Notes: generated by a model from the letters alone, not told the origin. Numbered from the stretch's first letter, positions 28,008-45,468 are shown. The stretch is 64,000 bases of DNA from Sedimentisphaerales bacterium (GCA_963708075.1 OY970194.1:2112001-2176000); one strand, 5' to 3'. Made by a program: numbers and translations.

Positions 28008-29692
28008 CCTGATCCCTCCCTATGGCGTTCTGCCGGGGGTGGGGGCGGCGGTTTGCCAGTTGGTGGAGTCGCTGCCGCTGTGAGTTTCGTCCGCGTGCTG
28101 CCTTTGCAGGCAGTCGCCGGTGGCGTCTGTGCCGGATGGCCAAGGGGCGATGGGACTGTAGATCACTTCATCCAGGATTACCCAGCCGATGTCAACAGGA
28201 TCGGTACCCACCTGCGGCTTGTCCAATGCCACTCGCTCGCCCTGGTTTGATAGATTGCCCTGCCAGGGGCCGAAGAGATTCACATTCGCTGTGAGTTGTC
28301 CGCCGTAGGCGGCGGCGAACTCTGTCACGCGAGCGGGCTCCGTCTGCGGGTCGAAGCCGACCACCACGATCCGGCCGCCGGCGGCAATCGAGGCACTCGC
28401 GGGGAAGTTGTAGTCCACCGCGCCATCCAGACGCCAAGGAATGGTCTGCGTGGTCAAGGCGACTGCTTGTGATGTTGGATTGTATAGCTCGATGTATTCT
28501 TCATTCGGATCAATGGGACTGTACATGATCTCATCAATGACCACCGACAGCAGCGGCGTTGTGTTGGCTTTGGCTTGTGAGGGCGTCATTCGGAACCAGT
28601 AGGCTCCGCCGTCGGGATAGCGGCCGAGCGAGATACCTGCTTCCTGAGCTTTGAACGAGACTGCATCCACGATCCGGTCCTGGGCTGTGCCGGGCAGATA
28701 CGACAGCAACAGGTCCTCGCCGTTACTGCCCAGGCCAAAGCCCTGGAGATTGTCGAAGCGGACGTATCCCAGAGAAGGTACCGACACCGCCGGAAGCTTG
28801 TACTTCTTCGGTTCGGCCACATCATCACTGAGATACCAGTTCGCAAGACTTACACTGGCTGCCGTGGGGTTGTACAACTCCACCCAATCATCCTCTGTCG
28901 GTGTGGCGCCATTGGCGAGGAACTCATTGAGCACCACCGTCTGCACAACAGCCGGATCATCCTGGCCCGGCGAGCCGCCCATGTTCGTGCTCGCGCGCCA
29001 GTTGCCGGGATAGTTCAACGAGCCCTGTGGCTGGCCCAGCAGTGCTGTATCCAAGGGCACCAGGGAGTGCCCGCCTCCATCGGCCGCCAGAGGCCAGCCT
29101 CGGCCGTCGCCATACTCGAACTCGGCGACCGTGCCATTCCAGAAGTCCACGAGAGCGACCTTCTCGCCATTATTCGCCAGCTTGCCCTGATACTGGCCGG
29201 CGATGATCGAAGACAATGCCGAGCCATAGCGGGAGGTGAACGCCGCTTTGTTCCGGACCACCAGCACGAACTTGCCCGGGCCAAGACTCGTAACGGCACC
29301 GCCCTGGAAATCGAAAGTAACGCCGTTCGTAAGCGAGACGCTGCCCAGATCCAGCGTATCATCGCCTGTGTTCTTGAGCTCGATGTACTCGTATTCTTCG
29401 CTATCAAAGGCATCGCCGGCCAGAACAGCGGGATTGTACATCACTTCCGTCACTCGCAGGTCCTCTAAGATTCCTGCGGCAATGGGCTCACCGGCCACGA
29501 ACTGCACCGGGGCCGACCAGTGGCTCCAGCGGCCGGAGGTATCTTTCATCCGGCAGCGGACCCGATACGTTCGCCCCTCGCGAACCACCGAGGCGGGAAT
29601 CTTCGCATCCGCATTGAACGTCGTCAACTCCGCGCTCTCCCAGAGAGGCTCGATCTCATACCTGCCCGCCTCGCGCTGGTACACCTGCGTCA
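28008..29692 (-). repeat. 1685-bp near-identical inverted repeat, copy A (partner 43784-45468)
   Basis: Same length, from TGACGCAGGTGTACCAG to GGAGGGATCAGG (12 nt past the stop); about 19 aa differences in ~555. Confidence 0.93.
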
Positions 29693-32600
29693 TGCCCGGC
29701 TCAGTTGTGCCGTTGCCGCCATTGGACTTCTCTGCGGTCAGTCGCACATCAATGAAGCAGTCCGAGCTGCTGTTGAGAGAAATGTTGAGCAACTGCACGG
29801 CGACCACGTTCGTGCCCCGCACCAGCCATGTGGCGGGCGCGCCCAGGTCACGCCGGTCAAAGGCGGAATCCTCCCTGGTCGCGATCGCGACCGAGTTGTA
29901 TGGCGCGTCGGCGGAAGGCACGTAGTCACTGTACGCAAGCTTGCCGTTAAGCCAGATGTTGACGCCGTCGTCATATTTGACCTCAAGGATCAGCTTGGCG
30001 AGGCCATTGAGGCTGGCGACATCAAAGGTATTGCGAAGGTAGACGGTGGTGTAATTGCCCCACATGTCCGTGAGCGGCGTCACGATGAATGTCTCGCCAT
30101 AGCCGATGGCTGTATTGCCCGCCAGCCATTGGGAATCGTCGAAGTCGATCCGTCGCCATGCCCCGGACACTGCCGAAGGCTCGCTTCTGCCCTTGAAGTA
30201 CTTCCACGTCGCTCCATCCGGCAGCAACGTAACGCTGGTGTCGGAGCCCGTGGGAACCTGCGACCCGGCGGCCACCTCCGCAATGCGCCATTTCACGGCG
30301 CCAAACGTGGCGGCCCCCTGCGGGTCGCTGAATGCGCTCGTCCTGAAAGACAAGGCATTGGCGGGGAAGCCCTGCGGCCCCGTGCTTGTGACAACGGGCG
30401 TATTCGGGATCGCGGCGTCGGCGGCCTTGCTATTCATGTGCGGCACGCGCTCTGCGATGTAATCCTTCATCACCTTGACCATGCCCTCGAAGCTTCGCTC
30501 GTAGCGGCGGTCCACCGCCTCCTGGTAGAACCGTCCCTGACCCGCCTTGTCGCTGCCGCAATTGGTGCGATAGCGACTGCATGCGGCGTCCGCCATGACC
30601 CAGTGGTAGTCCCACATGGCACGATCCGCGTCCACGATGGACAGCCCGCCGGCGGGGTCGTTGATGATCGCCGCGTAGTCGTCGATAAGTTGGCCGGTCT
30701 GCTCCACGTTGAAGAGCAGGTCCACCACCTCGCGAATCCGGTTCCGTTTCTCCAGGTCAAGCGCCGCGTTGTAGAAGATGCCCGCCCTGCTGAACGGATC
30801 GCTCGGGTCGTTGTTGCCATAGTAGGTGGTCCAGGTCAGGTCGAGGTCCCAGGGCAGTTGCCACCACTGGTCGGTCTGCGGGTGGTGGTAGAGGAACCAG
30901 TTCTTGCTGGTGATGTCGCCGTGATGGACGGCCTGGTAGATGGCAACGTAGGCATAATATGCATCGAGGTTGACGTTCTGGCTCCACCATTGGGCGGAGG
31001 GGTTGGACGAGTACATGCCTCGGAAGATCTCGAGGTCCGAATCATCGGCGGGCTGGGTCGGCCCCTGGTTGTTCTTGTCGAACCCGCCGGGATAGGCGTT
31101 ATCCATCTTGAACAGGTTGCCGTCGGGCAGACCGTGCTCATCGAGGAATCGCCCGTCTATCTGCTCGATGGTCATGTACAGACCCCAGAAGTCGCCGTCA
31201 TACTGGGTCCCCTTTGTCGTTAGCGGCACATGGGCGGCGTTGCGCTCGCCGTCCTCGTATGGCTCGTCGATGATCCGGAACTGCAGGTAGTTCGTCTTTG
31301 AGGCGGGGCAGCCGGCCAGGTTGAACATCCGGAACGAGAGGGCCTCGAACATGCCCTGCTCCCCGCGCTGCCCGAAGCTGCCCTGCTGGATGCAGGCGGA
31401 GAAGTCCAGCCGATTCCACTTCGTCGCGTACTTGTTCCCGTAGTCGTCCCGTGCCTGGAAGTAATGTCCCCTGTTGAAATCGAACTTGAACATGTCCTTC
31501 CCCATGGAGTAACGCCAGACACCGCCGCGCATGCGGTAGCGGATGTGGTCATACACTTCGCCATCGTAGACGAGCGTGCCCCACCAGCGAAACAGGTCGC
31601 TGCCGTCCTTGGAGAACCACGTGCAGTCCTCGACGTCGGCTTTCTTGCTGATGAGGTGATAGACGGGCAGACTGCGCATCACCTCGGCGGGGTACTCGAT
31701 AACCGGGGTGACGCCAGGCTGCACGGCGCCGCGCCAGGCGGGCACGCCGTCATACACGAAGTAGGCGAAATTCGGCTGCGGGTCGTCGGGATATGGCACG
31801 AACGCGGCGGCGCCGGGATCATCCATTGCGAAGATCTTGTAGCGGATGAGCCGGCGGTGGATCTGCAGCGAGGCCGGAAGCTGGACGGTGAAGATGCCGT
31901 CCTGGAGGAGGGCGTCGCCGCCGAGCCCGTCGTCGTGCATCGCGACGGAGGTCCAGGTCGTGCCGTACTGAGGATCCAGACGAGCAATGTAGTTGCCCGG
32001 GTTCACCAACTGATACATCAACGTGACCGTCTTCACGCCATCCGGATCGGTCACCTTGGCGGTGATGGTCACGGCCTCCCCGGACCTCGGTTCCTTCGGC
32101 GAGTGCTTCACCTGCCGGACCTGGGGCGGGATGTTCGCGGCGGGAGCCCCCTTATTCACCGCCGCGGGCGTCGGCAATCCCGACCGCCAACTGCCCCCGA
32201 GATCATTATCGAACAAAGGATTGGTCAACTGCATGGAGCATCCCGCCCCCGGCTGATCCGCAGGCACCGGGTCGCCCACCGTGGGCCAGGGGAAGCCGAG
32301 CTGGTACTCGACCTCATCTACCACCTGCCCCTGGGCGTCACACAGGACGACGCGGTCGCCTTCGTTGTCCAGCTTGCCCTCGTACGGGCCAAAGACGAGA
32401 CTGGCCGGGATAGGGAACCGGCCCGCGCTCCACTTGGCGTGGATATGGCTCGGGTCCTGGGCCACGATCACGTACTCTCCTGCCGCTATTTTGGCTCCGG
32501 CCGGGAACGTGTAGAGAATGCCCGACGTGAAGCGCCACCCGCTCAGGTCCAACTCGGAGGTCCCCGGGTTGTGCAGCTCAACGAACTCGACCAGCTCCGT

Positions 32601-32750
32601 TTTCACATCCGGATCGACGTGCAGCTCGTTGATGACCACCTGGGGGAAATTCGAAATTCGAATATCGAAATCCGAAGGGACGGCTGCAACCAGACCCGTC
32701 ATCGCCGAGAGAAACAAAACGACCGACGCAGACTTCTTTGGTGCTAACAC
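28020..32750 (-). CDS. Secreted CotH kinase + multiple lamin-tail-domain (LTD) protein, paralogue A
   Basis: VVINELH..EFVELHN LTD; RMRGG, GNLFK, KNWFLY, LPWDLDLTW (CotH); three C-terminal LTDs; GTG start after GGAAGAGG. Confidence 0.9.
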   Translation of the reverse strand: MLAPKKSASVVLFLSAMTGLVAAVPSDFDIRISNFPQVVINELHVDPDVKTELVEFVELHNPGTSELDLSGWRFTSGILYTFPAGAKIAAGEYVIVAQDPSHIHAKWSAGRFPIPASLVFGPYEGKLDNEGDRVVLCDAQGQVVDEVEYQLGFPWPTVGDPVPADQPGAGCSMQLTNPLFDNDLGGSWRSGLPTPAAVNKGAPAANIPPQVRQVKHSPKEPRSGEAVTITAKVTDPDGVKTVTLMYQLVNPGNYIARLDPQYGTTWTSVAMHDDGLGGDALLQDGIFTVQLPASLQIHRRLIRYKIFAMDDPGAAAFVPYPDDPQPNFAYFVYDGVPAWRGAVQPGVTPVIEYPAEVMRSLPVYHLISKKADVEDCTWFSKDGSDLFRWWGTLVYDGEVYDHIRYRMRGGVWRYSMGKDMFKFDFNRGHYFQARDDYGNKYATKWNRLDFSACIQQGSFGQRGEQGMFEALSFRMFNLAGCPASKTNYLQFRIIDEPYEDGERNAAHVPLTTKGTQYDGDFWGLYMTIEQIDGRFLDEHGLPDGNLFKMDNAYPGGFDKNNQGPTQPADDSDLEIFRGMYSSNPSAQWWSQNVNLDAYYAYVAIYQAVHHGDITSKNWFLYHHPQTDQWWQLPWDLDLTWTTYYGNNDPSDPFSRAGIFYNAALDLEKRNRIREVVDLLFNVEQTGQLIDDYAAIINDPAGGLSIVDADRAMWDYHWVMADAACSRYRTNCGSDKAGQGRFYQEAVDRRYERSFEGMVKVMKDYIAERVPHMNSKAADAAIPNTPVVTSTGPQGFPANALSFRTSAFSDPQGAATFGAVKWRIAEVAAGSQVPTGSDTSVTLLPDGATWKYFKGRSEPSAVSGAWRRIDFDDSQWLAGNTAIGYGETFIVTPLTDMWGNYTTVYLRNTFDVASLNGLAKLILEVKYDDGVNIWLNGKLAYSDYVPSADAPYNSVAIATREDSAFDRRDLGAPATWLVRGTNVVAVQLLNISLNSSSDCFIDVRLTAEKSNGGNGTTEPGMTQVYQREAGRYEIEPLWESAELTTFNADAKIPASVVREGRTYRVRCRMKDTSGRWSHWSAPVQFVAGEPIAAGILEDLRVTEVMYNPAVLAGDAFDSEEYEYIELKNTGDDTLDLGSVSLTNGVTFDFQGGAVTSLGPGKFVLVVRNKAAFTSRYGSALSSIIAGQYQGKLANNGEKVALVDFWNGTVAEFEYGDGRGWPLAADGGGHSLVPLDTALLGQPQGSLNYPGNWRASTNMGGSPGQDDPAVVQTVVLNEFLANGATPTEDDWVELYNPTAASVSLANWYLSDDVAEPKKYKLPAVSVPSLGYVRFDNLQGFGLGSNGEDLLLSYLPGTAQDRIVDAVSFKAQEAGISLGRYPDGGAYWFRMTPSQAKANTTPLLSVVIDEIMYSPIDPNEEYIELYNPTSQAVALTTQTIPWRLDGAVDYNFPASASIAAGGRIVVVGFDPQTEPARVTEFAAAYGGQLTANVNLFGPWQGNLSNQGERVALDKPQVGTDPVDIGWVILDEVIYSPIAPWPSGTDATGDCLQRQHADETHSGSDSTNWQTAAPTPGRTP

Positions 32751-32770
32751 GTTTCGTCCTCTTCCATATA

Positions 32771-32795
32771 GTAGGGGCGGGTTTCAAACCCGCCC
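32771..32795 (+). repeat. REP-like palindrome family B (GTAGGGGCGGGTTTCAAACCCGCCC); other copies at 40363-40386 and 40692-40715
   Basis: GTAG-led hairpin GGGCGGGTTT/AAACCCGCCC; three copies in the window. Confidence 0.85.
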
Positions 32796-32846
32796 GGGCG
32801 CGGGCCGCTCCACGCATGCCCGGCCATGCGCCCCCGCCACCCGTAT

Positions 32847-32876: not shown

Positions 32877-33046
32877 GGCAGCGTCTGCCTTCCAAGTCCT
32901 GGCTTTTCCGCGGAAGCCACGGTTTTCCTGGGGTACGGCGGCTCCGGTTGTCGCACTGTATAATGGGATCATGGCGTGGTCCATATTCCCTGTAAGGCAG
33001 GACCGCCGTAGAATAGCAATCGGTTGACTGTTTGTGGAGAGCGGAA

Positions 33047-34138
33047 ATGGCTGCAATGATTCATCTTGGTTTGCTGCTGCCGTTGGCGCTGGCCGGGGCA
33101 GGAAGTGGTCCGGGGGAGTTCATCACCATCGAGAGACTCTCGCCGCGCGTAATCCTGGCCTACTGGCCTGGGATTGACCGGCGATGCAATCTCACGGCCA
33201 TCCAGTCCGAGAAAGGCCTGGTGATCATCGATACGGAGGCATCGCCGCGGGTCATGGCCCCCATCAAGGCGAAGATCGAGCAGGCATTTCACCGCACCGA
33301 CTGGGCCTACGTCATCAATACGCACGCCCACGACAACCATTGCAGCGGCAACAGCCTCTTCAAGGGCGCGACGATCATTGGCCACGACAACCTTGCCGCC
33401 GACATGCAGTGGCTGATCGACCGGCAGGCCATGCCGGAACGGAAACGCCAGTCGATCGACCAGTTCACGACGATCATCCGCGACCTGCACGCCGCCCTGC
33501 CCCGATACGCCGCCAACCCCGGATACACGAGACTGATCCGCAGCGACCTCGTCTTCTACGGTCTGTTCGTGCAGGACCTGCAGGAGGGTTACGAGGTCGT
33601 CAAGCCGACGCTCACATTTCCCGATAAACACACGCTGGATTTGGGCGACCTGACCCTGGAGTTGACCTTCTTCGGCAAAGGCCACAGCAACTCCGACATC
33701 CTGATCTACGTTCCCCAGGAGCGGATCCTGGTCACCGGCGCCATCGCCTACCAGCAGTACCGCGTCCCTGAAATCGGCGAAGAGTCGCATCTTGAAGACG
33801 TCCACCGTTTCATCGCCGTCCTGGACGGTCTCCTCGCCGACAATGTGAAGATCGATCACGTGATCCCGGGACACAGCGTCCGGCTGACTCGCGCCGTCCT
33901 TCCACCGATCCGCGATTACTACCGGAGAATGCTCACGGAAGTCCAGGCCGCTCGCAAGCAGGGCCTGACCCTGGACGAGACGACCAGGCTTCTGACCCTC
34001 CGCGCCAAATTCCCCGCCTTCCGCGACCCGCCCTCCCGCACGTATGGCTACGACCACCAGGAGCGCAGCGTGAGGAACCTCTGGCGCATCCTGGACGAGG
34101 AGCAACCGCAGCCGAAAGCAGAGAAAGCACGGAATTGA
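33047..34138 (+). CDS. Secreted MBL-fold metallo-hydrolase
   Basis: LVIIDT, INTHAHDNHCSGN (variant HxHxDH), GHSNSD, VIPGH. Confidence 0.88.
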   Translation: MAAMIHLGLLLPLALAGAGSGPGEFITIERLSPRVILAYWPGIDRRCNLTAIQSEKGLVIIDTEASPRVMAPIKAKIEQAFHRTDWAYVINTHAHDNHCSGNSLFKGATIIGHDNLAADMQWLIDRQAMPERKRQSIDQFTTIIRDLHAALPRYAANPGYTRLIRSDLVFYGLFVQDLQEGYEVVKPTLTFPDKHTLDLGDLTLELTFFGKGHSNSDILIYVPQERILVTGAIAYQQYRVPEIGEESHLEDVHRFIAVLDGLLADNVKIDHVIPGHSVRLTRAVLPPIRDYYRRMLTEVQAARKQGLTLDETTRLLTLRAKFPAFRDPPSRTYGYDHQERSVRNLWRILDEEQPQPKAEKARN

Positions 34139-34155
34139 GTGCGCCACAATGCTTC

Positions 34156-34184
34156 TTGACTCCGCGCCTCCAAATGGATAGGAT
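34156..34184 (+). promoter_or_regulatory. Sigma70-like promoter of the toxin-antitoxin operon
   Basis: TTGACT-N17-TAGGAT; GAGGTG RBS before 34207. Confidence 0.6.
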
Positions 34185-34206
34185 GGAGTGAAGAATGAGG
34201 TGAAGC

Positions 34207-34422
34207 ATGAAGGACTACAGAGTAAAAACGAAAATTGAAAGAGACGGCTCACTGACGATCAAAGGTCTGCCCTTTCAGGCGGGAGAGCAAGTCGAGGTCG
34301 TTGTCCGAAGCCAAAAGGCGGGTGCCGGAAACGGTGATCGCTATCCGCTGCGAGGAAAGCCGATTCGATATACCGATCCCTTTGGCAGTGTGGCTGAAAA
34401 GGACTGGGAAGTCCTGAGATGA
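34207..34422 (+). CDS. VapB-like antitoxin (AbrB-like fold)
   Basis: 71 aa; DGSLTIKGLPF..GEQVEVVV; YPLRG..Y.DPF.SVAE.DW; ATGA overlap with a PIN-type start. Confidence 0.75.
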   Translation: MKDYRVKTKIERDGSLTIKGLPFQAGEQVEVVVRSQKAGAGNGDRYPLRGKPIRYTDPFGSVAEKDWEVLR

Positions 34423-34523
34423 TCGTTCTCGATACCCACATCTGGCTCTGGTGGGCACACTGTCCGCTCATCACATCTGACAGCAGAATTCTAACCTACC
34501 CCCACGTGAAGACGGTGGCATAG
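34419..34523 (+). pseudogene. vapC: VapC/PIN toxin with a large in-frame internal deletion
   Basis: 34 aa MIVLDTHIWLWWAH-CPLITSDSRILTYPHVKTVA: PIN N-terminus joined directly to the PIN C-terminus. Confidence 0.85.
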
Positions 34524-34842
34524 GGACCAAGCCGGATGCCGTGAGGCGTTTTCGTGGCGAGGCCGTCCCGGTCTTGCGTCTCGCCGGCATCTTGCCGGTG
34601 CTCCCTTGGCCCATCTTGGCCGACGAACAGCCCGACCTCCGCGTTCTCCGCACGTCGAATAATGAATAATGGATTCCGCTGAAGAAGCCTCGCAAATGGC
34701 AAAACTACCCGCGTTTTCGGGCCCACAAATGAGGGTAAGGAGGCCAAAAACAGGGCTTTCTCAGCGGAATCAACAATGAAGACACGGCCCCCTGATTTGC
34801 TTGAGGAGAATGTCTCACGCACCCTGGCCCGTCGTCGGGCTA

Positions 34843-35484
34843 TCACACTTGCCGGCGTAGTCTCAAACCGGCAGCCCCCAGCCCGAGCAACCCCAACAGG
34901 ACGGCGCCCGGAAGAGGGACGACAGAGCCAAACTGGGCGTTGTCGATTCCGGTGTTCTGGGTTTGCCCGCCCACGGCCGTCCAGCGAATGGAATCGATGA
35001 AGCTGCTCGAAGTCACTCCGAAGAAACCGATCGTGGTGTAGTTGACATTACTTAGAGTCGTGGTGGTCCACCCGTCACTGTTGTGGATCTGGAGTGTGAC
35101 GGGCCCCCAGCTATTGAGATACGTATCGAACCCCACCGCTGTGATGGACAGGCCAAGGGGGATGCTCACCACGAAGTCCTCGTTCCCGGTGGCCGTCATG
35201 ACATTGGCGCCCGCCGGAACAAGGGGGACGCCGAAGTTGGTGTAGGCGTTGTCCGTGACCCAGATGTTGCCCGTGGCATACGGCGCATAGGTGATTCCCT
35301 GGTTGGTGAACGAAGCCAATGCCGAGTCCTTGGGAGTCGCCGAGCTGAAGTTTTCCATGAAACTGATGGTTGTGTTCGCGGCGAACGAAGCACCATCCGC
35401 ATAGAACGTAAGGCCCGCGTGGGCCATGGCGGCAAACAGCAACAGTGCCGCAGAAGCGAAAACGCATCTTCTCATCACACTCAT
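34843..35484 (-). CDS. PEP-CTERM/VPLPA-CTERM exosortase-target protein
   Basis: Signal peptide; C-terminal VVPLPGAVLLGLLGLGAAGLRLRRQV; GGAGG RBS. Confidence 0.88.
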   Translation of the reverse strand: MSVMRRCVFASAALLLFAAMAHAGLTFYADGASFAANTTISFMENFSSATPKDSALASFTNQGITYAPYATGNIWVTDNAYTNFGVPLVPAGANVMTATGNEDFVVSIPLGLSITAVGFDTYLNSWGPVTLQIHNSDGWTTTTLSNVNYTTIGFFGVTSSSFIDSIRWTAVGGQTQNTGIDNAQFGSVVPLPGAVLLGLLGLGAAGLRLRRQV

Positions 35485-35579
35485 CCTCCACCCCCAGCGT
35501 TCAACTGATTGTCATACGGCTATCAGGAGAACTTGCACACTCTCCAACGGGCAGCGCCAAAAGGGCCGCGCTCTTATTA

Positions 35580-35609
35580 ATTCTACGCGTCACAAGGGGG
35601 GAATGTCAA
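35580..35609 (-). promoter_or_regulatory. Sigma70-like promoter of the PEP-CTERM gene
   Basis: TTGACA-N18-TAGAAT. Confidence 0.6.
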
Positions 35610-35800
35610 AGATTTTTTACGACGCGATTACACTTTTTTGGGTAATAACAGGCCCGGCCGCAAACGGCGGTTCCATAGCCGGTTGTTCGTGTCGGCAAAC
35701 CGCATTCCTGCCTCAAAAACGCGGATTTGGACGTCACCCGCAAAGGTCCATCATCTGCCTACGCATGTTATCGAGCCTCCTGCTACGGTCAAGCAGAGCG

Positions 35801-36023
35801 TGTAGGGTGGGTTCTCAACCCACGCGTCAAGAGACACTTCGCTCGAGTAACCACGTGGGTCAAGGACCCACCCTACGAGCTCATCCTCTCACGCCAGTTT
35901 GTACGCGATCTGTTCGTCGAGGATGTCTTTGACGGTCAGGGCGATGACGCTCTTGCCGGTCTTCTTGAAGAATGCTCCGATCTCGTGCAATGCATCCGTG
36001 CTGTAGTCGAACGCGACAAAGAA
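35801..36023. repeat. 223-bp direct repeat of 37174-37396 (REPIN plus the last 45 codons of the MTase gene)
   Basis: Offset 1373 bp; 6 mismatches, of which the 5 in coding sequence are all synonymous. Confidence 0.92.
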
Positions 36024-36279
36024 TTGCGGCCGAAAGCAGAGAAAGCACGGGACTGAGCAAGCCACCGGTTTTCACGGCAGGCACATGGAATCATCAAGAC
36101 ACAGACGCTTACGCCCAGGCGATCCAAGCAAAACAATTATTTGACTAAAGATGCGACCTCACAGTCCCCACGTTCTCCACACCTCGAATAATGAATAATG
36201 AAGACACGGCCCCATCATTTCGCCCATCCCCGTGTCGATGGCATGTAGGGTGGGTTCTCAACCCACGCGTAGAGGTCCA

Positions 36280-36831
36280 TTATTCTCCAGCCCCGAGATC
36301 GTCAAATTCATCTCTTCTGCTGAGCAGGGTTTGCGGACCATAGTAGCCTTCCCGCAGGTACCGGTGGTAGGTTGACCAAGGCCAGTCGCCTGGGTCCGTG
36401 ACCAAGGCGTGTTTGACCGGGTTGAAATGAATGTAGTTGACGTGCCTGCTGAGGTCGAGCTCGTCACGGATTCGGTGCTCCCAGAATCGACGTTGCCAGA
36501 TGGCAGCCTCATTTCGGTGTACGTGGGATGGATTGCGAATGGCGTCACGACCTCCGGCGCGGAGGTACTCGCGTGTGAAGACGGCCTTGATGGCCGCCCA
36601 ACGGCTGGAGAAATCGGCATCGTCGGGCGGCAGCTTCCAGATACAGTGCAGGTGTTCCGGAAGAAGATACCGAGCGACGATCTCAAATGGCTTGCGTTCC
36701 TGCACCGTCTGCCACGCATGACGTAGACAGGCTCTCGCCGCCTCCTCGGAGAAGATCCGATGCCTGTCGTAGGTCACGACGGTAAAGAAATAACAGCCGC
36801 CTGGAGAGTCGGCGCGCCGGTAGTGAGACAT
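36280..36831 (-). mobile_element. rayT: REP-associated tyrosine transposase (RAYT, HUH Y1)
   Basis: MSHYRR..PGGCYFFTVVT; LPEHLHCIW (HUH); IWQRRFWEH.IRDE; YIHFNPVKH; DWPWST; inverted REPs on both sides. Confidence 0.95.
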
Positions 36832-36879
36832 CTCGTGATCCTGCCGCAAAGTCACGCGTGGGTTGAGAACCCACCCTAC

Positions 36880-37249
36880 GAAGAACGCATGGGTGAAGAC
36901 TCATTCTGCACGCCTAATGACATCATCCGAAATGCTATCTATGTGAATGCAGGAACGCAAGCAATTCAGGTTGCGTGCCCCGCAGCCTTGTAGGGTGGGT
37001 TCTCAACCCACGCGTCAAGAGACACTTCGCTCGAGTAACCGCGTGGGTCAAGGACCCACCCTACGAAGAACGCATGGGTGAAGACTCATTCTGCACGCCT
37101 AATGACATCATCCGAAATGCTATCTATGTGAATGCAGGAACGCAAGCAATTCAGGTTGCGTGCCCCGCAGCCTTGTAGGGTGGGTTCTCAACCCACGCGT
37201 CAAGAGACACTTCGCTCGAGTAACCGCGTGGGTCAAGGACCCACCCTAC
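36880..37249. repeat. 185-bp tandem duplication (36880-37064 and 37065-37249): 110-bp spacer plus REPIN
   Basis: Units identical by eye; each spacer carries TTGCGT-N17-TAGCAT on the minus strand, pointing at rayT. Confidence 0.92.
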
Positions 37250-37261
37250 GAGCTCATCCTC

Positions 37262-38773
37262 TCACGCCAGTTTGTACGCGATCTGTTCGTCAAGGATGTC
37301 TTTGACGGTCAGGGCGATGACGCTCTTGCCGGTCTTCTTGAAGAATGCTCCGATCTCGTGCAGAGCGTCCGTGCTATAGTCGAACGCGACAAAGAACCCC
37401 TTCGTGCGGTCCTCGCGCATCATCACCGCTTCGAAGGAGTCAATGTCGGGCCGGCCGACCTTGTCTTTCTGCTTGACCTGGATGGGGTACCAGACGTCCA
37501 TGAAGTCGAGTTGGCCCTCGCTCTTCTTCGGCGTCGCTGAGACCGGGTAGATTCGCCCGTCGATGCCCATGTCTCCGACCTGGGCCTTGTTGGGAATGCC
37601 GCCCAGCGCGATGACGGCCCAGTTCTCAAATTCAAACGGCGGAATCTTGCGCAACTGCTCTTCGCTCCACGGCAGGTCACGAACCACAAAGCCCCGCCCA
37701 AGCCGCCAGAGCTTCTCATCCTCTTTCACGCCACAGATGTCCCGCAGCCGCTTAGCCATTACCCGGCAGGCGGTTGGCGAGATGTCAATACCGATCCATT
37801 GACGCCCCAGGTTCTCTGACGCCACCAATGCGGTGCCACAGCCACAGAACGCATCCAAGAGGACATCGTTGGGTCTGGAACTCGTGTTGATGATGCGCTC
37901 AAGCAATTGGAGAGGCTTCTGTGTCGGATACCCAAGCGACTCCTTAGCCTGTGAGTTTATGGGGTTGATATCATCCCAGACACTTCCAACCGGAAGGCCC
38001 TTGGATTCATCGAGATATCGCTTATATCGGGGAGTTCTGCCACCTGGTGGAATCGCGACTCGTCCCTCCTTAATGAATTGCTCCATCTTCTCCTGACTGT
38101 ATCGCCAGTAGCCGTCAACTCCGAGAACTACGTAATGAGGATTGCCCTTGGAGGGCGCGGCACCACCGGGTGCGCGGAGGTCACCCCATTGAAAGCGTCG
38201 CCCATTTTCATCCGTCTGCGAGTAATGCGATTCGATGTAGGATGGGTCCAGCGGAGAGTATTGCTGGTTCCAGGTATAGTCGTCCGATTTGGTGTAAAGA
38301 AACAATGTGTCGTGAAGGCGACCGAAGTGTCGGCTTCCTTGCTTGGCGTCGTTGTGGGAGGTTTGTCGCTTCCAGACGACCTCGTTTATAAACGCGTTCT
38401 CTCCGAAGATCTGGTCGAGCATGACTTTGACGTAGTGGCTCGCGTGCCAGTCACAGTGGTAGTAGAAGGAGCCGGTCTTCTTGAGGACGCGGTGGAGCTC
38501 GACGCAGCGCGGACGCATGAAGTCGATGTAGGCGGCGGTGGAGGCGTGGCGGTCCTCGAAGGCGCGTTTCTCCTTCGTCTCGCCCCAGAAGACCTCGTAG
38601 TTGCGATTGGAGTTGAAGGGCGGGTCGATGTAGACCAGGTCCACGCATTCATCGGGCAGCTTGCTCAACTGGTCGAGATTGTCGCCGCAGTAGATGACTC
38701 GGGTATCGACCAGCGCCGAGGGCTTGCCGCCCGCCGGGACTTTTTCAGACTCTCGCGCATCTTTCTTTGTCAT
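37262..38773 (-). CDS. Beta-class N4/N6 DNA methyltransferase fused to a C-terminal Mrr-like PD-(D/E)xK nuclease domain
   Basis: LVYIDPPF; YPTQKP..LLERII; DAFCGCGT; C-terminal FEFENWA..GDMGIDG..IQVKQ. Confidence 0.9.
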   Translation of the reverse strand: MTKKDARESEKVPAGGKPSALVDTRVIYCGDNLDQLSKLPDECVDLVYIDPPFNSNRNYEVFWGETKEKRAFEDRHASTAAYIDFMRPRCVELHRVLKKTGSFYYHCDWHASHYVKVMLDQIFGENAFINEVVWKRQTSHNDAKQGSRHFGRLHDTLFLYTKSDDYTWNQQYSPLDPSYIESHYSQTDENGRRFQWGDLRAPGGAAPSKGNPHYVVLGVDGYWRYSQEKMEQFIKEGRVAIPPGGRTPRYKRYLDESKGLPVGSVWDDINPINSQAKESLGYPTQKPLQLLERIINTSSRPNDVLLDAFCGCGTALVASENLGRQWIGIDISPTACRVMAKRLRDICGVKEDEKLWRLGRGFVVRDLPWSEEQLRKIPPFEFENWAVIALGGIPNKAQVGDMGIDGRIYPVSATPKKSEGQLDFMDVWYPIQVKQKDKVGRPDIDSFEAVMMREDRTKGFFVAFDYSTDALHEIGAFFKKTGKSVIALTVKDILDEQIAYKLA

Positions 38774-38853
38774 AGTGCACCAGTGTAAACCCGGGTGGGC
38801 GTTTTGCAAGCCCTATGCGGATTCCGGCGGCCCTCAGGCGCCATCAAATCATC

Positions 38854-38933
38854 TCGCGCAGAGACGCAGAGACGCGGAGAACGGCAGGATGGAATCACGT
38901 TTCTTTACTCTGCGTCCCTGCGCCTCTGCGCGA
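38854..38933. repeat. 26-bp inverted repeat of CGCAGAGA units, followed by a ~98-bp tandem REP-bearing unit (to 39106)
   Basis: TCGCGCAGAGACGCAGAGACGCGGAG pairs with CTCTGCGTCCCTGCGCCTCTGCGCGA (3 mismatches). Confidence 0.8.
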
Positions 38934-39377
38934 TACATAATTCTCCCCGGACTACGCGTGGGTTGAGAACCCACCCTACGGGGAGTCGGTGTGCGATGCA
39001 CACCCTACGTCCTCTCTGCGTCCCTGCGCGATCCATAATTCTTCCTGGGCTACGCGTGGGTTGAGAACCCACCCTACGGGGAGTCGGTGTGCGGTGCACA
39101 CCCTACGCGGGTTCGGGCTTCCTTGGGACCGGCAATTGGGCGCCGGGAGCCCGGTCGGAGGGGTGTCTCACTTTCGGTCGAATTTCGCACGATTTGCGCG
39201 CCGGTTTAGTTGGGGAAATGGGTGCTGCGCGAGATTTTTTTTATTTCATTTGGGGCAAGGGGTTACGGGAATCCGGAGGAGGCGGGCGGATCACTTTTTT
39301 CGACCAAAGCGCACACTTTCGTCCCATTGTGGAGGGACGCATTTGTGCGCCGGCGTCCCTTCGAGCCCGGCCAGTTT

Positions 39378-39481: not shown

Positions 39482-39551
39482 GAACGGGCTTGGCATTGCC
39501 AACTGAGATGAAAACGGGTGAAGGTTGAGAAAGGCGAGAGGGAATGACGGT

Positions 39552-40391
39552 ATGAGACCAAGAAGCAGAGTGCAGCAAGGCGCCGCGCAGAATCCGGACA
39601 TCGCTGACCGGCAACCAACAACCAGGGACGAACAACCAGCAGCCGACCCGCCGGTGATGCCATGTTGCGGGAGTTGCGTTTATGCGGTGGCGTTGCAGGA
39701 TGCCGAGCGACAACTGCTGGTGTGCACGGATCGGCCGGGGGTGCCGGGACAATTGTCGATTGTCCAGCCGTGCGAGGTGTGCCGGAGGTTCAGAAAGAGG
39801 CGAGAGAAGATCGTTCGGCTGGAGCCGCCTGAGCCGCCGAGTGACGATGTCCGCTATATCCCGCTGACGCGGGGCAGGTTCGCCATTATCGATGCGGCCG
39901 ACTATGAGCGGGTCAGCCGGCACAAGTGGTGCGTGACAGGCTCCGGGCGACGGGTGTATGCGTGCCGCAGTGTCAACGGCAAGCAGGTCTCCATGCACCG
40001 GTTCCTCATGAATCCGCCGAAGGGGATGGTCGTGGACCACATCGACGGCGACCCCCTGAACAACCGCCGGAGCAATCTGCGCATTTGCACGGTGCAGCAG
40101 AATATCTGGAACAGCCAGCCCAAGGGCAAAAGCTCGCAGTACAAGGGCGTGTGCAGGGACAAGGACAAGAGGAAATGGGTGGTGCACGTTTGCCACAACG
40201 GGCACAACTGGTATATGGGCCGGTTCGAGCTGGAGATCGACGCCGCCCGGGCCTACGACCGCAAGGCCTTCGAGCTCTTCCGCGAGTACGCATGGCTGAA
40301 CTTCCCGGAGGAATATGGAATGTTTCCGCTTCGATCGCGTCTATGTAGGGGAACAGATGCCCGTAGGGGCGGGTTTGAAACCCGCCTGTAG
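39552..40391 (+). CDS. HNH endonuclease + AP2 domain protein with an N-terminal Cys-rich module (start may be 39657)
   Basis: IPLTRG.FAIIDAADYE; MHR..VVDHIDGDPLNNRRSNLR; SSQYKGV..G.F..E.DAARAYD..A.LNFP; CCGSC...C...CEVC. Confidence 0.88.
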   Translation: MRPRSRVQQGAAQNPDIADRQPTTRDEQPAADPPVMPCCGSCVYAVALQDAERQLLVCTDRPGVPGQLSIVQPCEVCRRFRKRREKIVRLEPPEPPSDDVRYIPLTRGRFAIIDAADYERVSRHKWCVTGSGRRVYACRSVNGKQVSMHRFLMNPPKGMVVDHIDGDPLNNRRSNLRICTVQQNIWNSQPKGKSSQYKGVCRDKDKRKWVVHVCHNGHNWYMGRFELEIDAARAYDRKAFELFREYAWLNFPEEYGMFPLRSRLCRGTDARRGGFETRL

Positions 40392-40622: not shown

Positions 40623-40737
40623 GAGCGAAAAGCGGGTGCGGATGGGTCTGTCGGCCGCGTGGGACGGGCATGCATTGAGCAGCCCGCATACGGCGGGTTT
40701 CAAGCCCGCCTCTACTTCATATGGAAGAGGATGTAGC

Positions 40738-43700
40738 GTGGTGGCATCAAAGAGGTTTCCGTCGGTCGTCGTAACCATCGTGATATTCTGGCTTTGCGGA
40801 TGTCCCCTGGGACGCGTGGGGGATTGTACGGCGAGGGCGGCAGACTTGGCTGGGCCCATGGTCGTCATCAACGAGCTGCACGTCAATCCGGACGTCAAGA
40901 CCGAACTTGTGGAGTATGTCGAGTTGCATAACCCGGGGACGGCTAGTGTGGACCTGAGCGGATGGCGGCTGGATGGCGGGGTGTTCTACACGTTTGCGGC
41001 CGGGAAGGTACTGCCGGCGGGAGGCTACGTGATTGTGGCTGAGAATCCGACCCATATCCGCACCAAGTGGGGCGCGGGGCGGTTTCCCCTGTCATCGGGG
41101 CTCTTGTTCGGGCCGTACGGGGGCAAGCTGGGCAGCGATGGGGATCGGGTCGTGCTGTACGATGCGGCCGGGCAGGTCGTTGATGAGGTCGAGTACCAGC
41201 TCGGCTTCCCCTGGCCGACGGTGGGCGACCCGGTGCCCGAGACCAGCACGGGCACCGGATACTCGATGCAGTTGACGAATCCGCTGTTTGACAACAACCT
41301 CGGGGGCAGTTGGCGGTCCGCGCCGCCCACACCTGCGGCGGTCAATAGCCTGGTCTTTGCGGAGAACATTCCCCCGCAGATCCGGCAGGTGAGGCACTCG
41401 CCCAAGCAGCCGCAGGCCAACGAGGCTGTGACTGTCACGGCAAAAGTGACCGACCCGGATGGCGTCAAGACTGTCACGCTCATGTACCAGGTGGTGACGC
41501 CCGGCGCGTATATCAGCCGGCAGGACGCCCAGTACATCTCCAACTGGACCTCGATCAATATGCACGACGACGGGTTGGCCGGCGACATTGAGATGCTGGA
41601 TGGAATCTACACGGTCCAAGTGCCCGCGTCGGCCCAGAAACACCGGAACCTGGTCCGCTACAGGATTTCCGCGGCCGACAGCACCGGCAAGAGCGTGACC
41701 GTGCCATACGCCGACGACCCCCAGCCAAACTTTGCCTACTTCGTCTATGACGGCGTCCACGGCTGGAAAGGGGCCGCCAGACCGGGTGACACGGGGCAAC
41801 TCGGCCAGGTTGTGGAATACGGCCCGGAGGTGATGAACAGCCTGCCCATCTATCACCTCATCAGCAAGAAGTCGGACGTCGAGGCATGCATGTGGAAAGA
41901 GCAAATCCCGTACAACAGCCTGCAAGCGACCGTCTTCAAGTGGTACGGCACGCTCGTCTATGACGGCGAGGTCTACGACCACATCCGCTACCGCCTCCGC
42001 GGCGGCGTCTGGCGCTACGCCATGGGGAAGAACATGCTGAAGACGTCCCTGCAGAGGGGACATTATTTTCAGGCGAGGGATGATTACGGCAGGAAGTACG
42101 ATACAAAATGGGACACGATCAATTTCTCGGCGTGCATCCAGCAGGGCGACTATCAGCACCGGGGCGAACAGGGGATGTTCGAGGCTGCGGGGTTCAAGCT
42201 GTTCAACCTGATGGGCTGCCCCGCCGCCACGACGAACTGGGTGCACTTCCGCATCATCGACGAGGCCGCCGAGACCGGAGCGACCCAGTACGACGGCGAC
42301 TTCTGGGGCCTGTACATGACGATCGAGCAGATGGACGGCCGATTCCTGGACGAGCACAGCCTGCCCGACGGCAACCTGTACAAGATGGACAGCGGCGCTC
42401 CCGATGCCGGCCCCGGCGGCGGCTCGCTCAACAACCAGGGCCCCACCCAACCCAGCGACCACTCCGATCTCCTGGCGTTCGCCGGCGGCTACCGCAGCCG
42501 GCCGCAGGAGCCCTGGTGGCGGCAGAATGTCAGTCTCTCCCCTTACTACGGCTTCCGCTGCGTCGTCGAGGGCGTGCATCACGGCGACATGGAGAGCGGC
42601 AAAAACTGGTTCTTCTATCACGACCCCGTGACGAACCGCTGGACGATCATGCCCTGGGACCTCGACCTGACCTGGGCCAACAACATGTACGGCACCGGCG
42701 CGGATGAATTCACAAGGAGCAGCATCTTCTCCAACGCCAGTCTCCAGATCGAGTACCAGAACCGCCAGCGGGAGTTCATGGACCTGCTCTACAACAAGGA
42801 CCAGGGGTATCAGGTCCTCGACGATCTCGCGAGCATCATCGATCCCCCGACCGGCGGCCCGACCTTCGTCGGCGCCGATCGCGCCATGTGGGACTATAAC
42901 CCGATCATGAGGTCGAGCTACGTGGACCCGAGCAAGTCCGGACAGGGCCGCTTCTACCAGCGGGCCGCCACGAGGGACTTCCGCGGCATGGTGCAGATCA
43001 TGAAGGATTATATCACGTCGAGCAATCGCGAGTTCAACACGTACTCCGAGGACGCGCAGGCTCCGCAGACGCCCGTGGTCACGGCTACGGGCCCGGCGGG
43101 CTTCCCGCTGAATACCCTGGCATTCCGTGTAAACCCCTTCGCCGACCCGCAGGGAGCCGGCACATTCGCGGCCATGAAGTGGCGCATCGGCGAGGTGGCG
43201 GCCGGCTCGCAGGTCACAGCGCCCCCGCAGGGTTCCGGCGTCCTGCTCCTGCCCGACGGCGCCGCGTGGAAATACTTCAAAGGTCTGAGCGAGCCGTCTG
43301 CCACGCAGGGCGCATGGCGCGGCCTCAATTTCGACGACTCGCAATGGTTGACGGGCAAAACGGCTATCGGCTTCGGCACCAACGAGAACTTCATCGCGAC
43401 TACGCTCAGCGACATGCGAGGCAAATACAGCACAATCTACCTCAGAAATACCTTTGAGGTGGCCAGCCTCACCACCTTCGGCAACCTCATCCTTGAGGTC
43501 AGGCTCGACGACGGCGTCAACGTCTGGATCAATGGCAAGCTCGCTTACCAGGAGAACGTATCCTCGGCTGAAATACCTTACAACGGCCTTGCGACCGCCA
43601 ACATCGAGGAATGGACTTTTGGCCGACACGACCTCGGCGCACCCGCCACGTGGCTGGTGCGGGGCACGAACGTGATCGCCGTGCAGTTGCTCAACGGGTC

Positions 43701-45456
43701 GCTCAGTGGCAGCTCGGATTGCTTCGTCGATATCCGGCTGAGTGGGGAGAAGACTCAAAACGGTGGCACGGAGCAGCCGCCTGTGACGCAGGTGTACCAG
43801 CGCGAGGCGGGCAGGTATGAGATTGAGCCTCTCTGGGAGAGCGCGGAGTTGACGACGTTCAACGCGGATGCGAAGATTCCTGCCTCGGTGGTTCGCGAGG
43901 GGCGAACGTATCGGGTCCGCTGCCGGATGAAAGATACCTCCGGCCGCTGGAGCCACTGGTCGGCCCCGGTGCAGTTCGTGGCCGGTGAGCCCATTGCCGC
44001 AGGGATCCTGGCGGACCTGCGAGTGACGGAACTGATGTACAATCCCGCCGTTCTGGCGAGTGATGCGTTCGACAGCGAGGAATACGAGTACATCGAACTC
44101 AAGAACACAGGCGATGATACGCTCGATCTGGGCAGCGTCTCGCTTACGAATGGCGTTACTTTCGATTTCCAGGGCAGTGCCGTTACGAGTCTTGGCCCGG
44201 GCAAGTTCGTGCTGGTAGTCCGGAACAAAGCGGCGTTCACCTCCCGTTATGGCTCGGCATTGTCTTCGATCATCGCCGGCCAGTACCAGGGCAAGCTGGC
44301 GAATAATGGCGAGAAGGTCGCTCTCGTGGACTTCTGGAATGGCACGGTCGCCGAGTTCGAGTATGGCGACGGCCGAGGCTGGCCCCTGGCGGCCGATGGA
44401 GGCGGGCACTCCCTGGTGCCGCTGGAGACAGCGTTACTGGGCCAGCCACAGGGCTCGTTGAACTATCCCGGCAACTGGCGCGCGAGCACGAATATGGGCG
44501 GCTCGCCGGGCCAGGATGATCCGGCACTCCCGCAGACAGTGGTGATCAATGAGTTTGTAGCCAACGGCGCCACACCGACAGCCGATGACTGGGTGGAGTT
44601 GTACAACCCCACGGCAGCCAGTGTAAGTCTTGCGAATTGGTATCTCAGCGATGATGTGGCCGAGCCCGGCAAGTACAAACTTCCGGCGGTGTCGGTACCT
44701 TCTCTGGGATACGTCCGATTCGACAATCTCCAGGGCTTTGGCCTGGGCAGTGATGGCGAGGACCTGCTGCTGTCGTATCTGCCGGGCACAGCCCAGGACC
44801 GGATCGCCGATGCAGTCTCGTTCAAAGCCCAGGAGGCAGGCATCTCGCTCGGCCGCTATCCGGATGGCGGAGCCTACTGGTTCCGAATGACGCCCTCACA
44901 AGCCAAAGCCAACACAACGCCGCTGCTGTCGGTGGTCATTGATGAGATCATGTACAGTCCCATTGATCCGAATGAAGAATACATCGAGCTATACAATCCA
45001 ACATCACAAGCAGTCGCCTTGACCACGCAGACCATTCCTTGGCGTCTGGATGGCGCGGTGGACTACAACTTCCCCGCGAGTGCCTCGATTGCCGCCGGCG
45101 GCCGGATCGTGGTAGTCGGCTTCGACCCGCAGACGGAGCCCGCTCGCGTGACAGAGTTCGCCGCCGCCTACGGCGGACAACTCACAGCGAATGTGAATCT
45201 CTTCGGCCCCTGGCAGGGCAATCTGTCGAATGAGGGCGAGCGAGTGGCATTGGACAAGCCGCAGGTGGGTACCGATCCTGTTGACATCGGCTGGGTGGTC
45301 CTGGATGAAGTGATCTACAGTCCCGTCGCTCCCTGGCCCGCCGGCACAGACGCCACCGGCGACTGCCTCCAAAGGCAGCACGCGGACGAAACTCACAGCG
45401 GCAGCGACCCCGCCAACTGGCAAACCGCCGCCCCCACCCCCGGCAGAACGCCATAG
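40738..45456 (+). CDS. Secreted CotH kinase + multiple LTD protein, paralogue B
   Basis: Same architecture as paralogue A; GTG 40738 follows the same ATATGGAAGAGGA leader (MVASKR vs MLAPKK). Confidence 0.9.
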   Translation: MVASKRFPSVVVTIVIFWLCGCPLGRVGDCTARAADLAGPMVVINELHVNPDVKTELVEYVELHNPGTASVDLSGWRLDGGVFYTFAAGKVLPAGGYVIVAENPTHIRTKWGAGRFPLSSGLLFGPYGGKLGSDGDRVVLYDAAGQVVDEVEYQLGFPWPTVGDPVPETSTGTGYSMQLTNPLFDNNLGGSWRSAPPTPAAVNSLVFAENIPPQIRQVRHSPKQPQANEAVTVTAKVTDPDGVKTVTLMYQVVTPGAYISRQDAQYISNWTSINMHDDGLAGDIEMLDGIYTVQVPASAQKHRNLVRYRISAADSTGKSVTVPYADDPQPNFAYFVYDGVHGWKGAARPGDTGQLGQVVEYGPEVMNSLPIYHLISKKSDVEACMWKEQIPYNSLQATVFKWYGTLVYDGEVYDHIRYRLRGGVWRYAMGKNMLKTSLQRGHYFQARDDYGRKYDTKWDTINFSACIQQGDYQHRGEQGMFEAAGFKLFNLMGCPAATTNWVHFRIIDEAAETGATQYDGDFWGLYMTIEQMDGRFLDEHSLPDGNLYKMDSGAPDAGPGGGSLNNQGPTQPSDHSDLLAFAGGYRSRPQEPWWRQNVSLSPYYGFRCVVEGVHHGDMESGKNWFFYHDPVTNRWTIMPWDLDLTWANNMYGTGADEFTRSSIFSNASLQIEYQNRQREFMDLLYNKDQGYQVLDDLASIIDPPTGGPTFVGADRAMWDYNPIMRSSYVDPSKSGQGRFYQRAATRDFRGMVQIMKDYITSSNREFNTYSEDAQAPQTPVVTATGPAGFPLNTLAFRVNPFADPQGAGTFAAMKWRIGEVAAGSQVTAPPQGSGVLLLPDGAAWKYFKGLSEPSATQGAWRGLNFDDSQWLTGKTAIGFGTNENFIATTLSDMRGKYSTIYLRNTFEVASLTTFGNLILEVRLDDGVNVWINGKLAYQENVSSAEIPYNGLATANIEEWTFGRHDLGAPATWLVRGTNVIAVQLLNGSLSGSSDCFVDIRLSGEKTQNGGTEQPPVTQVYQREAGRYEIEPLWESAELTTFNADAKIPASVVREGRTYRVRCRMKDTSGRWSHWSAPVQFVAGEPIAAGILADLRVTELMYNPAVLASDAFDSEEYEYIELKNTGDDTLDLGSVSLTNGVTFDFQGSAVTSLGPGKFVLVVRNKAAFTSRYGSALSSIIAGQYQGKLANNGEKVALVDFWNGTVAEFEYGDGRGWPLAADGGGHSLVPLETALLGQPQGSLNYPGNWRASTNMGGSPGQDDPALPQTVVINEFVANGATPTADDWVELYNPTAASVSLANWYLSDDVAEPGKYKLPAVSVPSLGYVRFDNLQGFGLGSDGEDLLLSYLPGTAQDRIADAVSFKAQEAGISLGRYPDGGAYWFRMTPSQAKANTTPLLSVVIDEIMYSPIDPNEEYIELYNPTSQAVALTTQTIPWRLDGAVDYNFPASASIAAGGRIVVVGFDPQTEPARVTEFAAAYGGQLTANVNLFGPWQGNLSNEGERVALDKPQVGTDPVDIGWVVLDEVIYSPVAPWPAGTDATGDCLQRQHADETHSGSDPANWQTAAPTPGRTP

Positions 45457-45468
45457 GGAGGGATCAGG
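43784..45468 (+). repeat. 1685-bp near-identical inverted repeat, copy B (partner 28008-29692)
   Basis: See copy A. Confidence 0.93.

Follow-up and report, generated by a model that had tools for sequence, protein, structure and literature searches.

Integrons combine an integrase (IntI), a recombination site that recurs at each joint, and small, variable cargo carried in tandem. The locus considered here resembles them in the last respect: in a 64,000-nucleotide (nt) stretch of DNA from a Sedimentisphaerales bacterium (hereafter the window; C1:2112001-2176000 within a single 7.52-Mb contig, C1, with a G+C content of 60%), the interval between a gene for a metallo-beta-lactamase (MBL)-fold hydrolase and one for a DNA methyltransferase (MTase) holds two tandem units, one of them built around rayT, the gene of a transposase associated with repetitive extragenic palindromes (REPs). 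Unit 1 runs from an MBL gene end through a vapB-like gene, a broken vapC, a gene for a PEP-CTERM protein and a REP doublet (REPIN) to an MTase end, and unit 2 from a second MBL end through rayT and further REPINs to the MTase gene itself. A first-pass annotation of the window had read this layout correctly but had taken vapBC to be complete, whereas vapC has suffered an in-frame deletion that leaves 34 aa of the 130 aa found in relatives. Unlike an integron, moreover, the locus has no IntI, no repeated joint site, and only two units.

Several described systems share parts of this arrangement (statements on cited papers refer here and below to parts of those papers). In REPtrons (PMC3333891, PMC6006769), as in unit 2, an intact gene of the Y1 HUH type lies between inverted GTAG REPs, together with dispersed REPINs and local amplification of REP units; compared with the E. 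coli REPtron, however, there are two cognate rayT copies and a remnant here, at a position that is not fixed across the genus. At the E. coli yafL-fhiA slot, rayT and the toxin-antitoxin pair hicAB are alternative occupants in different strains (PMC3333891), whereas here rayT and a vapBC-type pair are stacked in one chromosome. Insertion-duplication by a single crossover of re-circularized incoming DNA and homology-facilitated illegitimate recombination (HFIR), both treated in PMC3240628, likewise involve one homologous anchor and one joint of little or no homology, and the anchor is duplicated in part, over 109-950 bp in that study and over 40 and 223 nt at this locus. In our case, however, the added DNA would be the locus's own orthologous allele, the ends of both flanking genes occur twice and are fused, and the event is natural and unselected. 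Effector-immunity arrays of the type VI secretion system and Rhs kind (PMC5361080) also gain alleles, keep 3' remnants, and resemble integrons without having an integrase, although they hold many modules under immunity selection, compared with two units of no known benefit here. Transformation of Streptococcus pneumoniae yields merodiploids with tandem heteroallelic duplications after uptake (PMC3784515), including a 3.3-kb case without flanking repeats; most of these span 100-900 kb and are joined at a repeat, whereas the joint here has none. At icd/icdC, a gene 3' remnant with mainly synonymous differences flanks the e14 prophage (PMC13626634), but there a single gene end accompanies an integrase-bearing element, while here two gene ends are duplicated and the added DNA has no integrase of its own, which sets the locus apart from att-site integration of this type. 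In the open-access PMC and bioRxiv literature, supplements aside, we found no description of allele stacking at a rayT locus.

The reading we favor, with a probability of roughly one half, is a one-off insertion-duplication in which the allele of a related strain was added by host recombination at the REPtron, with rayT as a passenger. The locus would then be a clean natural example of horizontal transfer adding an orthologous allele, one that keeps rayT, an antitoxin gene, and a surface-protein gene together. In addition, a slot occupied by either rayT or a toxin-antitoxin pair, familiar from E. coli, recurs here in a planctomycete. Both points are useful rather than surprising.

Two units as alleles of one slot

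Two duplicated gene ends define the tandem. The segment 35801-36023 (c1) copies 37174-37396 (c2), which comprises a REPIN and the MTase end, over 223 nt at 97.3% identity with six differences, and 36026-36057 (within a2) copies the MBL end at 34108-34139 (within a1) with three mismatches and the stop codon retained. Alignment confirmed both copies and their fusion, as first reported from the window sequence alone: the two copies lie 2 nt apart, with the boundary at 36023/36024. The a1/a2 match extends over 40 nt at 85% identity (E 7e-6 in a whole-genome comparison), and no further copy exists in the genome.

A related strain places these ends in context. A metagenome collection scanned with the 22-nt core common to a1 and a2 returned one contig (L041), which is 95.2% identical to the window over 3685 nt upstream and encodes an intact MBL protein of 368 aa. 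Together with the 60 nt behind it, the end of its MBL gene matches a2 (97.6% over 82 nt) and leads directly into a PEP-CTERM gene of the unit 1 type (88%), within which the contig ends, so that it covers the MBL side of the allele only. Since the L041 MBL gene ends in the a2 tail and is then followed by the unit 1 PEP-CTERM gene, a2 is, on this comparison, a true end of the MBL gene, and the two units are indeed allelic versions of a single slot that varies between strains, as the first-pass annotation had proposed. When the cargo of the interval is compared with L041 on the MBL side, in line with the annotation's suggestion of a comparison across strains, three or more states of the slot emerge (a2-PEP, a1-vapB-vapC'-PEP, and a2-rayT, with PEP denoting the PEP-CTERM gene). 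Among 40 relatives and 23 other genus members, these genes are 70-91% identical and the MBL-MTase order is not kept: in 20 regions of relatives no MBL homolog lay next to an MTase homolog, and 32 MBL loci had no adjacent MTase ortholog and only two weak, distant MTase matches. One genome (G021) has vapB-like, MTase, and HNH genes together within 8 kb, and none of 20 rayT loci of relatives has an MBL or PEP-CTERM neighbor.

The differences between c1 and c2 bear on the source of the added allele. One lies in the REPIN (35853) and five lie in the MTase frame (35919, 35990, 35991, 35994, and 36003), where all five are synonymous and the 44 codons encode identical residues. With a synonymous share of possible changes of 0.22-0.29, this has a probability of 0.006-0.018 under duplication followed by decay. 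The remnant frame meets a stop 16 codons upstream, leaving only a 58-codon GTG frame, so that selection on the remnant itself is unlikely; selection on a new fusion open reading frame (ORF) as the source of the synonymous pattern was rejected on the same ground. The genome has 87 near-tandem repeats of high identity and 80-450 nt in length, 28 of which overlap an ORF end by crude ORF calls; in this set, c1 is the sole 3' remnant with several changes that are all synonymous. With five synonymous changes over the 44 codons, c1 and c2 have diverged to an extent of the same order as the MBL genes here and in L041, which differ at 19 synonymous and 21 non-synonymous codons in 369, with patchy identity (81-100% per 100-nt window). 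Because all five coding differences are synonymous, a foreign working allele is favored: one unit would derive from the working locus of a strain at roughly L041 distance, in agreement with the earlier proposal that the remnant stems from a functional allele of another strain and is not a self-copy in decay. Four of the six differences fall within the last 34 nt beside the joint (P 0.006 if uniform) and the first 189 nt are 99% identical, a clustering that the patchy divergence from L041 can explain without gene conversion.

Either unit may be the newcomer. Unit 1 is favored by the way a1 abruptly diverges once the 22-nt core ends and by the match of both the MBL body and the a2 tail to L041, and unit 2 by its longer homology, the 223-nt c segment being the better RecA substrate.

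Apart from the slot itself, patches of 81-88% identity (window 33500-33599, 31500, and 32100) in an otherwise 95-100% alignment with L041 point to frequent small recombination tracts.

A third match noted by the first-pass annotation, at 36165-36212, does exist (to 34639-34671 at 91% and 34768-34798 at 87%, the gap between them being a 100-nt palindromic insert), but we rejected it as proof of allelism: it is built on a 24-nt dispersed repeat (window 36190-36213) with 13 genome copies, some pairs of which lie 1.1-1.3 kb apart, and alone it is weak evidence. The MITE-like (miniature inverted-repeat transposable element) palindrome occurs twice inside this 24-nt repeat (34672-34771; C1:6279762-6279897), with a 7-nt flanking repeat, which suggests that the insert targets the dispersed repeat.

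Proposed addition of an allele and a possible part of RAYT

We propose that the corresponding locus of a related strain supplied a 1.4-1.9 kb piece, which entered once and would have been joined by one homologous crossover, presumably made by host RecA, and one microhomology joint, possibly made by end-joining or HFIR, so that the resident allele was kept and the incoming allele added instead of replacing it. In a first route, the fragment would circularize and cross over in one of the shared segments, either that of 223 nt or that of 22 nt; in a second, a linear fragment would be anchored on one side (HFIR) and the joint would fall back inside the anchor. As both would give the identical product, the circularized foreign allele and single crossover envisaged in the first-pass annotation stand as one of two equivalent routes. 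There is direct experimental precedent for such a route without a transposase: of 60 Lac-minus clones obtained by E. coli conjugation, 56 had arisen by a single crossover with DNA that had been trimmed and re-circularized, with duplications of 109-950 bp, and the homology at HFIR joints amounts to 0-10 nt (PMC3240628). HFIR has also been proposed for arrays of alleles in Vibrio that retain 3' remnants and that were noted to resemble integrons (PMC5361080). In this scheme rayT is likely a passenger.

The joint itself is compatible with these routes. Its breakpoint reads AAC in all three known parent sequences and AAT in the product, with a microhomology of 2-3 nt, and a homologous anchor is present at one end (223 nt at 97.3%, or MBL at ~95% between strains). 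Both anchors are duplicated and there is no coupled deletion of resident DNA; the locus therefore departs from HFIR in the strict sense and fits the single-crossover class of PMC3240628. A ComEC gene, a candidate for DNA uptake, is present in the genome.

The protein encoded by rayT belongs to the RAYT family (NF047646, 184.5 bits against a cut-off of 80; HLH and Y-x-x-x-NP motifs intact). Its GTAG REPs have 122 genome copies at ≤4 mismatches, many of them as REPINs, with folding energies of -7.8 kcal/mol for the REP hairpin and -21.5 kcal/mol for the REPIN. Whereas RAYTs typically occur as a single copy at a fixed locus (10.1101/2021.07.10.451892), this genome has two rayT copies with the same REP (82% aa identity), a remnant, and one more rayT that goes with a different REP, which makes this family member atypical in copy number.

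The second cognate rayT (C1:2264421-2264966) lies in a locus (C1:2262792-2265009) with the order HNH gene, REP, rayT remnant, REP, a gene that we take to be prepilin-type from its N-terminal motif, HNH 3' remnant (147-149 nt), REP, and full-length rayT. At both rayT loci the gene end extends 147 nt 5' of GTAG, on opposite sides of the joint (left in one, right in the other), which is unexplained. As separate observations, the second-locus protein reads Y-L-H at the HUH position and may be inactive, and HNH genes lie upstream of rayT in L054, L055, and L065.

A number of points weigh against a one-off event with a passenger rayT. The donor itself was not found, and the joint base is unlike all three known parents. 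Classical HFIR deletes DNA instead of duplicating it, and ordinary recombination is more frequent than HFIR by a factor of 100 to 10^6 (PMC3240628); homology on both sides would have made clean replacement the easier outcome. The second rayT locus, too, is a diverged tandem, and among the 122 REPs only these two pairs and a 185-nt tandem share >100 nt 5' of GTAG. Finally, a local repeat of ≥100 nt was found in eight of 12 windows around Y1 genes (six of ten once one pair is merged and this locus dropped), an enrichment (binomial P 2e-5) that exceeds the prediction of the passenger model. The corresponding controls were 18 of 250 random windows (7%), 4 of 34 HNH loci, and 3 of 66 REP clusters without rayT; HNH loci were the only plastic-region control, the IS21, IS481, and PIN sets of this genome being empty, and the test replaced a cruder one (≥50 nt) with a background of 26/60.

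The strongest competitor, which we nevertheless regard as unlikely, leads to the same foreign-allele product but has RAYT make the joint, either by a nick in single-stranded DNA between C and T (C↓T) near the REPs and ligation of the 3'-C end, or through an excised rayT circle carrying 147-220 nt of the gene ends and integrated by RecA. E. coli TnpA-REP cleaves C↓T sites across a stretch of >400 nt from a bacterial interspersed mosaic element, and capture of flanking genes has been proposed (PMC3333891); strand transfer needs only a 3' C on the attacking end (PMC8266576). The REPs nearest to the joint here lie 147 nt (35852-35876) and 220 nt (36245) away. On the GTAG strand, compatible sites exist at both loci: in the L041 MBL gene, the reconstructed microhomology has C↓T at its right edge, on the same strand as the REP that follows 220 nt downstream, and at the second rayT locus CC↓T falls inside the microhomology, 140 nt 5' of GTAG. 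The intact rayT, the stacking at both cognate loci, and the enrichment of Y1 loci in local repeats also argue for this explanation. However, C↓T within seven positions is expected by chance with P 0.32 per strand, so that the compatibility of the joint is near chance level; the product reads T-T rather than C-T and would require a later change; and the MTase side has no matching C↓T. In addition, the repeats at the other Y1 loci mostly duplicate the Y1 gene itself or its own ends and are not captured host genes, and only four of 20 rayT loci of relatives have such a repeat (20 of 25 matches, in mostly fragmented assemblies that may lose repeats). In E. coli, no circles were found from rayT or REP regions (10.1101/2024.07.17.603846). 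Were RAYT the maker of the joint, this would bear on the host function of domesticated transposases, and the two loci name exact in vitro substrates. A version in which RAYT, bound to a REP next to rayT, acts in cis to catch incoming DNA, nicking C↓T 140-220 nt from the REP and ligating the 3'-C end of a foreign strand whose opposite end is paired by RecA, appears more doubtful still; both rayT loci would then be its products, foreign alleles would be added at such loci instead of exchanged, and RAYT would serve the host in gene acquisition.

Independently of the joint, Y1 (PF01797) loci with local direct repeats lie on C1 at 478 kb, 482 kb, 4660 kb, 5284 kb, and 6907-6910 kb, often as stacked Y1 copies or ends, and the Y1 proteins at 478.7 kb and 6909 kb are 100% identical.

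Self-duplication, assembly, and recurrent action

Compared with the one-off insertion-duplication, an origin within the genome is improbable. Here a tandem duplication of the strain's own locus would have been followed by gain and loss of cargo in each copy, and the MTase end would later have undergone gene conversion or been replaced in part by another allele. Conversion would leave the pattern seen, in which the first 189 nt of c1 and c2 are nearly identical while a1/a2 and b1/b2 (the dispersed-repeat matches) stand at 85-91%, small duplications without flanking repeats are known (PMC3784515), and the near-tandem repeats counted above show that such structures are found in this genome. Against this, the dead 44-codon remnant has no non-synonymous change or indel, and a2 is closer to the MBL end of another strain (97.6%) than to a1 (85%); at least two later events would also be needed.

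Less probable again is an assembly artefact, in which a chimeric read would have linked the haplotypes of two co-occurring strains in tandem. Two other runs of the study (X2 and X4) contain pieces of both units at 97-99% identity, so that the alleles may co-occur in the habitat; the unmatched joint base and a contamination estimate of 3.8% also speak for it. However, the haplotypes share only 2-3 nt at the jump, where an overlap assembler would need a read, and the genome is one contig. In run X1, which may be the source sample, both units are present at 100% with flank-like depth (5.9 and 5.0; 3.7 and 4.1; flanks 3.2-5.8), contig depth being no measure of copy number. The MTase-end contig of X1 differs from c1 at five of the six sites and from c2 at one, where it carries a c1 state, which is weak evidence and could be a strain polymorphism. 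Contigs of five of the ten available runs (X1-X4 and X7) leave 36024-36160 uncovered and the joint unbridged; as X1 has other gaps of ~500 nt (33301-33834 and 37573-37839), the missing bridge is uninformative either way.

A dedicated, repeatedly acting cassette system, the integron-like REP/RAYT stacking put forward in the first-pass annotation, is very improbable and not supported. Its attraction is that cargo differs in all three alleles and is cassette-like (a toxin-antitoxin pair, a surface protein), and that a second rayT locus is stacked. However, the units carry the ends of anchor genes instead of defined sites, and the array amounts to two units with one joint, which sits in coding remnants away from the REPs and not at a repeat; no repeated site of the integron type was seen (no attC model was run). 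For the integron integrase model TIGR02249, none of six matches exceeded the cut-off, the nearest lying ~240 kb away, and there was no tyrosine recombinase match near the locus. Fused joints of two gene ends were absent from 19 of the 20 rayT loci of relatives (matches at the 20th fall in a repeat with a 150-nt period), from 20 of 20 MBL/MTase loci of relatives, and from 31 of 32 MBL homolog loci, mostly in fragmented assemblies from which repeats may be missing, and the MBL and MTase genes are not neighbors in relatives, as described above. Genome-wide, 67 pairs of fused double-end duplications were found, one being this locus and the others apparently paralog or repeat arrays by their coordinates (one inspected). 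Since repeats are no more frequent at REP clusters without rayT than in random windows (3/66 and 18/250), REP clusters are not hotspots.

Elsewhere in the genome, at C1:232655-235545, a 118-nt gene-start repeat (97.5%) surrounds ~700 nt of small-gene remnants with no REP, a gene-end duplication around cargo without RAYT.

Equally improbable is a rearrangement mediated by an IS21-type insertion sequence once present at the MTase site and then lost: in one relative (G004; L040:6738, L039:55) an element interrupts the MTase homolog with a 5-nt target repeat at the equivalent of 37391-37395, in the 3-nt breakpoint interval, and in L021 an istA-like gene lies between identical ends, but the joint has no insertion-sequence remnant, this genome has no istA homolog (tblastn) and at most one weak end-like match, and the case is one in ten MTase loci viewed, noticed after the fact.

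Features of the interval and its surroundings

Table 1 Features of the MBL-MTase interval, in window positions
Feature	Position	Strand	Remarks
MBL-fold hydrolase gene, intact, 368 aa, left anchor of slot	33032-34138	+	PF00753 E 7e-12; 95% nt identity to L041
a1: unit 1 MBL 3' end and tail	34108-34147	+	22-nt core 34111-34132 identical in a2 and L041; divergence directly after core
vapB-like antitoxin gene, intact, 71 aa	34207-34422	+	Homologs in relatives directly precede a PIN-domain gene
vapC remnant, 34 aa, in-frame internal deletion of ~96 codons	34419-34523	+	130-aa homolog (L045) is a PF01850 PIN protein
b1: dispersed 24-nt repeat interrupted by 100-nt palindromic insert (34672-34771), 7-nt flanking repeat	34639-34798	+	
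PEP-CTERM protein gene, 213 aa, unit 1 cargo	34843-35484	-	PF07589 E 0.0026, under cut-off; 88% nt copy after MBL in L041
c1: REPIN (REPs 35802-35826 +, 35852-35876 -) and last 44 codons and stop of MTase	35801-36023	-	Frame closed 16 codons upstream
Joint of MTase remnant and MBL tail, the single novel one	36021-36025	.	Microhomology AA; T at 36024 in product
a2: MBL 3' end and downstream DNA, displaced or incoming	36022-36103	+	97.6% over 82 nt to intact MBL end in L041
b2: dispersed repeat copy without interruption	36165-36220	+	
REPtron: rayT (ATG 36831, stop 36280, 183 aa) between inverted GTAG REPs 36245-36269 (+) and 36855-36879 (-)	36245-36879	-	
185-nt tandem duplication (REP, 110-nt spacer, REPIN)	36855-37224	.	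Copies differ in REP type only
c2: REPIN and 3' end of intact MTase	37174-37396	-	
DNA methyltransferase gene, intact, C-terminal Mrr-type nuclease domain, right anchor	37262-38809	-	PF01555 E 4e-48, PF04471 E 1.5e-4

Among the genes listed in Table 1, the MBL protein scored under every listed beta-lactamase cut-off in profile models, and the vapB-like protein had no Pfam or NCBIfam match. A search for structured RNA (Rfam) gave four matches only, all to microRNA models far below their cut-offs, and a promoter and terminator scan gave counts near those of shuffled sequence.

Unit 2 carries a separate, nearly exact tandem duplication (36855-37039/37040-37224), which probably arose from REP-REP recombination; duplication joints of the REP-REP kind are found in the older literature. 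Upstream of the MTase gene, a 95-nt tandem pair with one REP each (window 38915-39107) adjoins another repeat family at 38827-38945. Farther along the window lies an HNH_3/AP2 gene (39525-40391) of a family with ~34 more loci in the genome, and the whole region is bracketed by two inverted lamin-tail/CotH genes (1576 and 1611 aa, 78% identical) at window 28008-32825 and 40662-45468.

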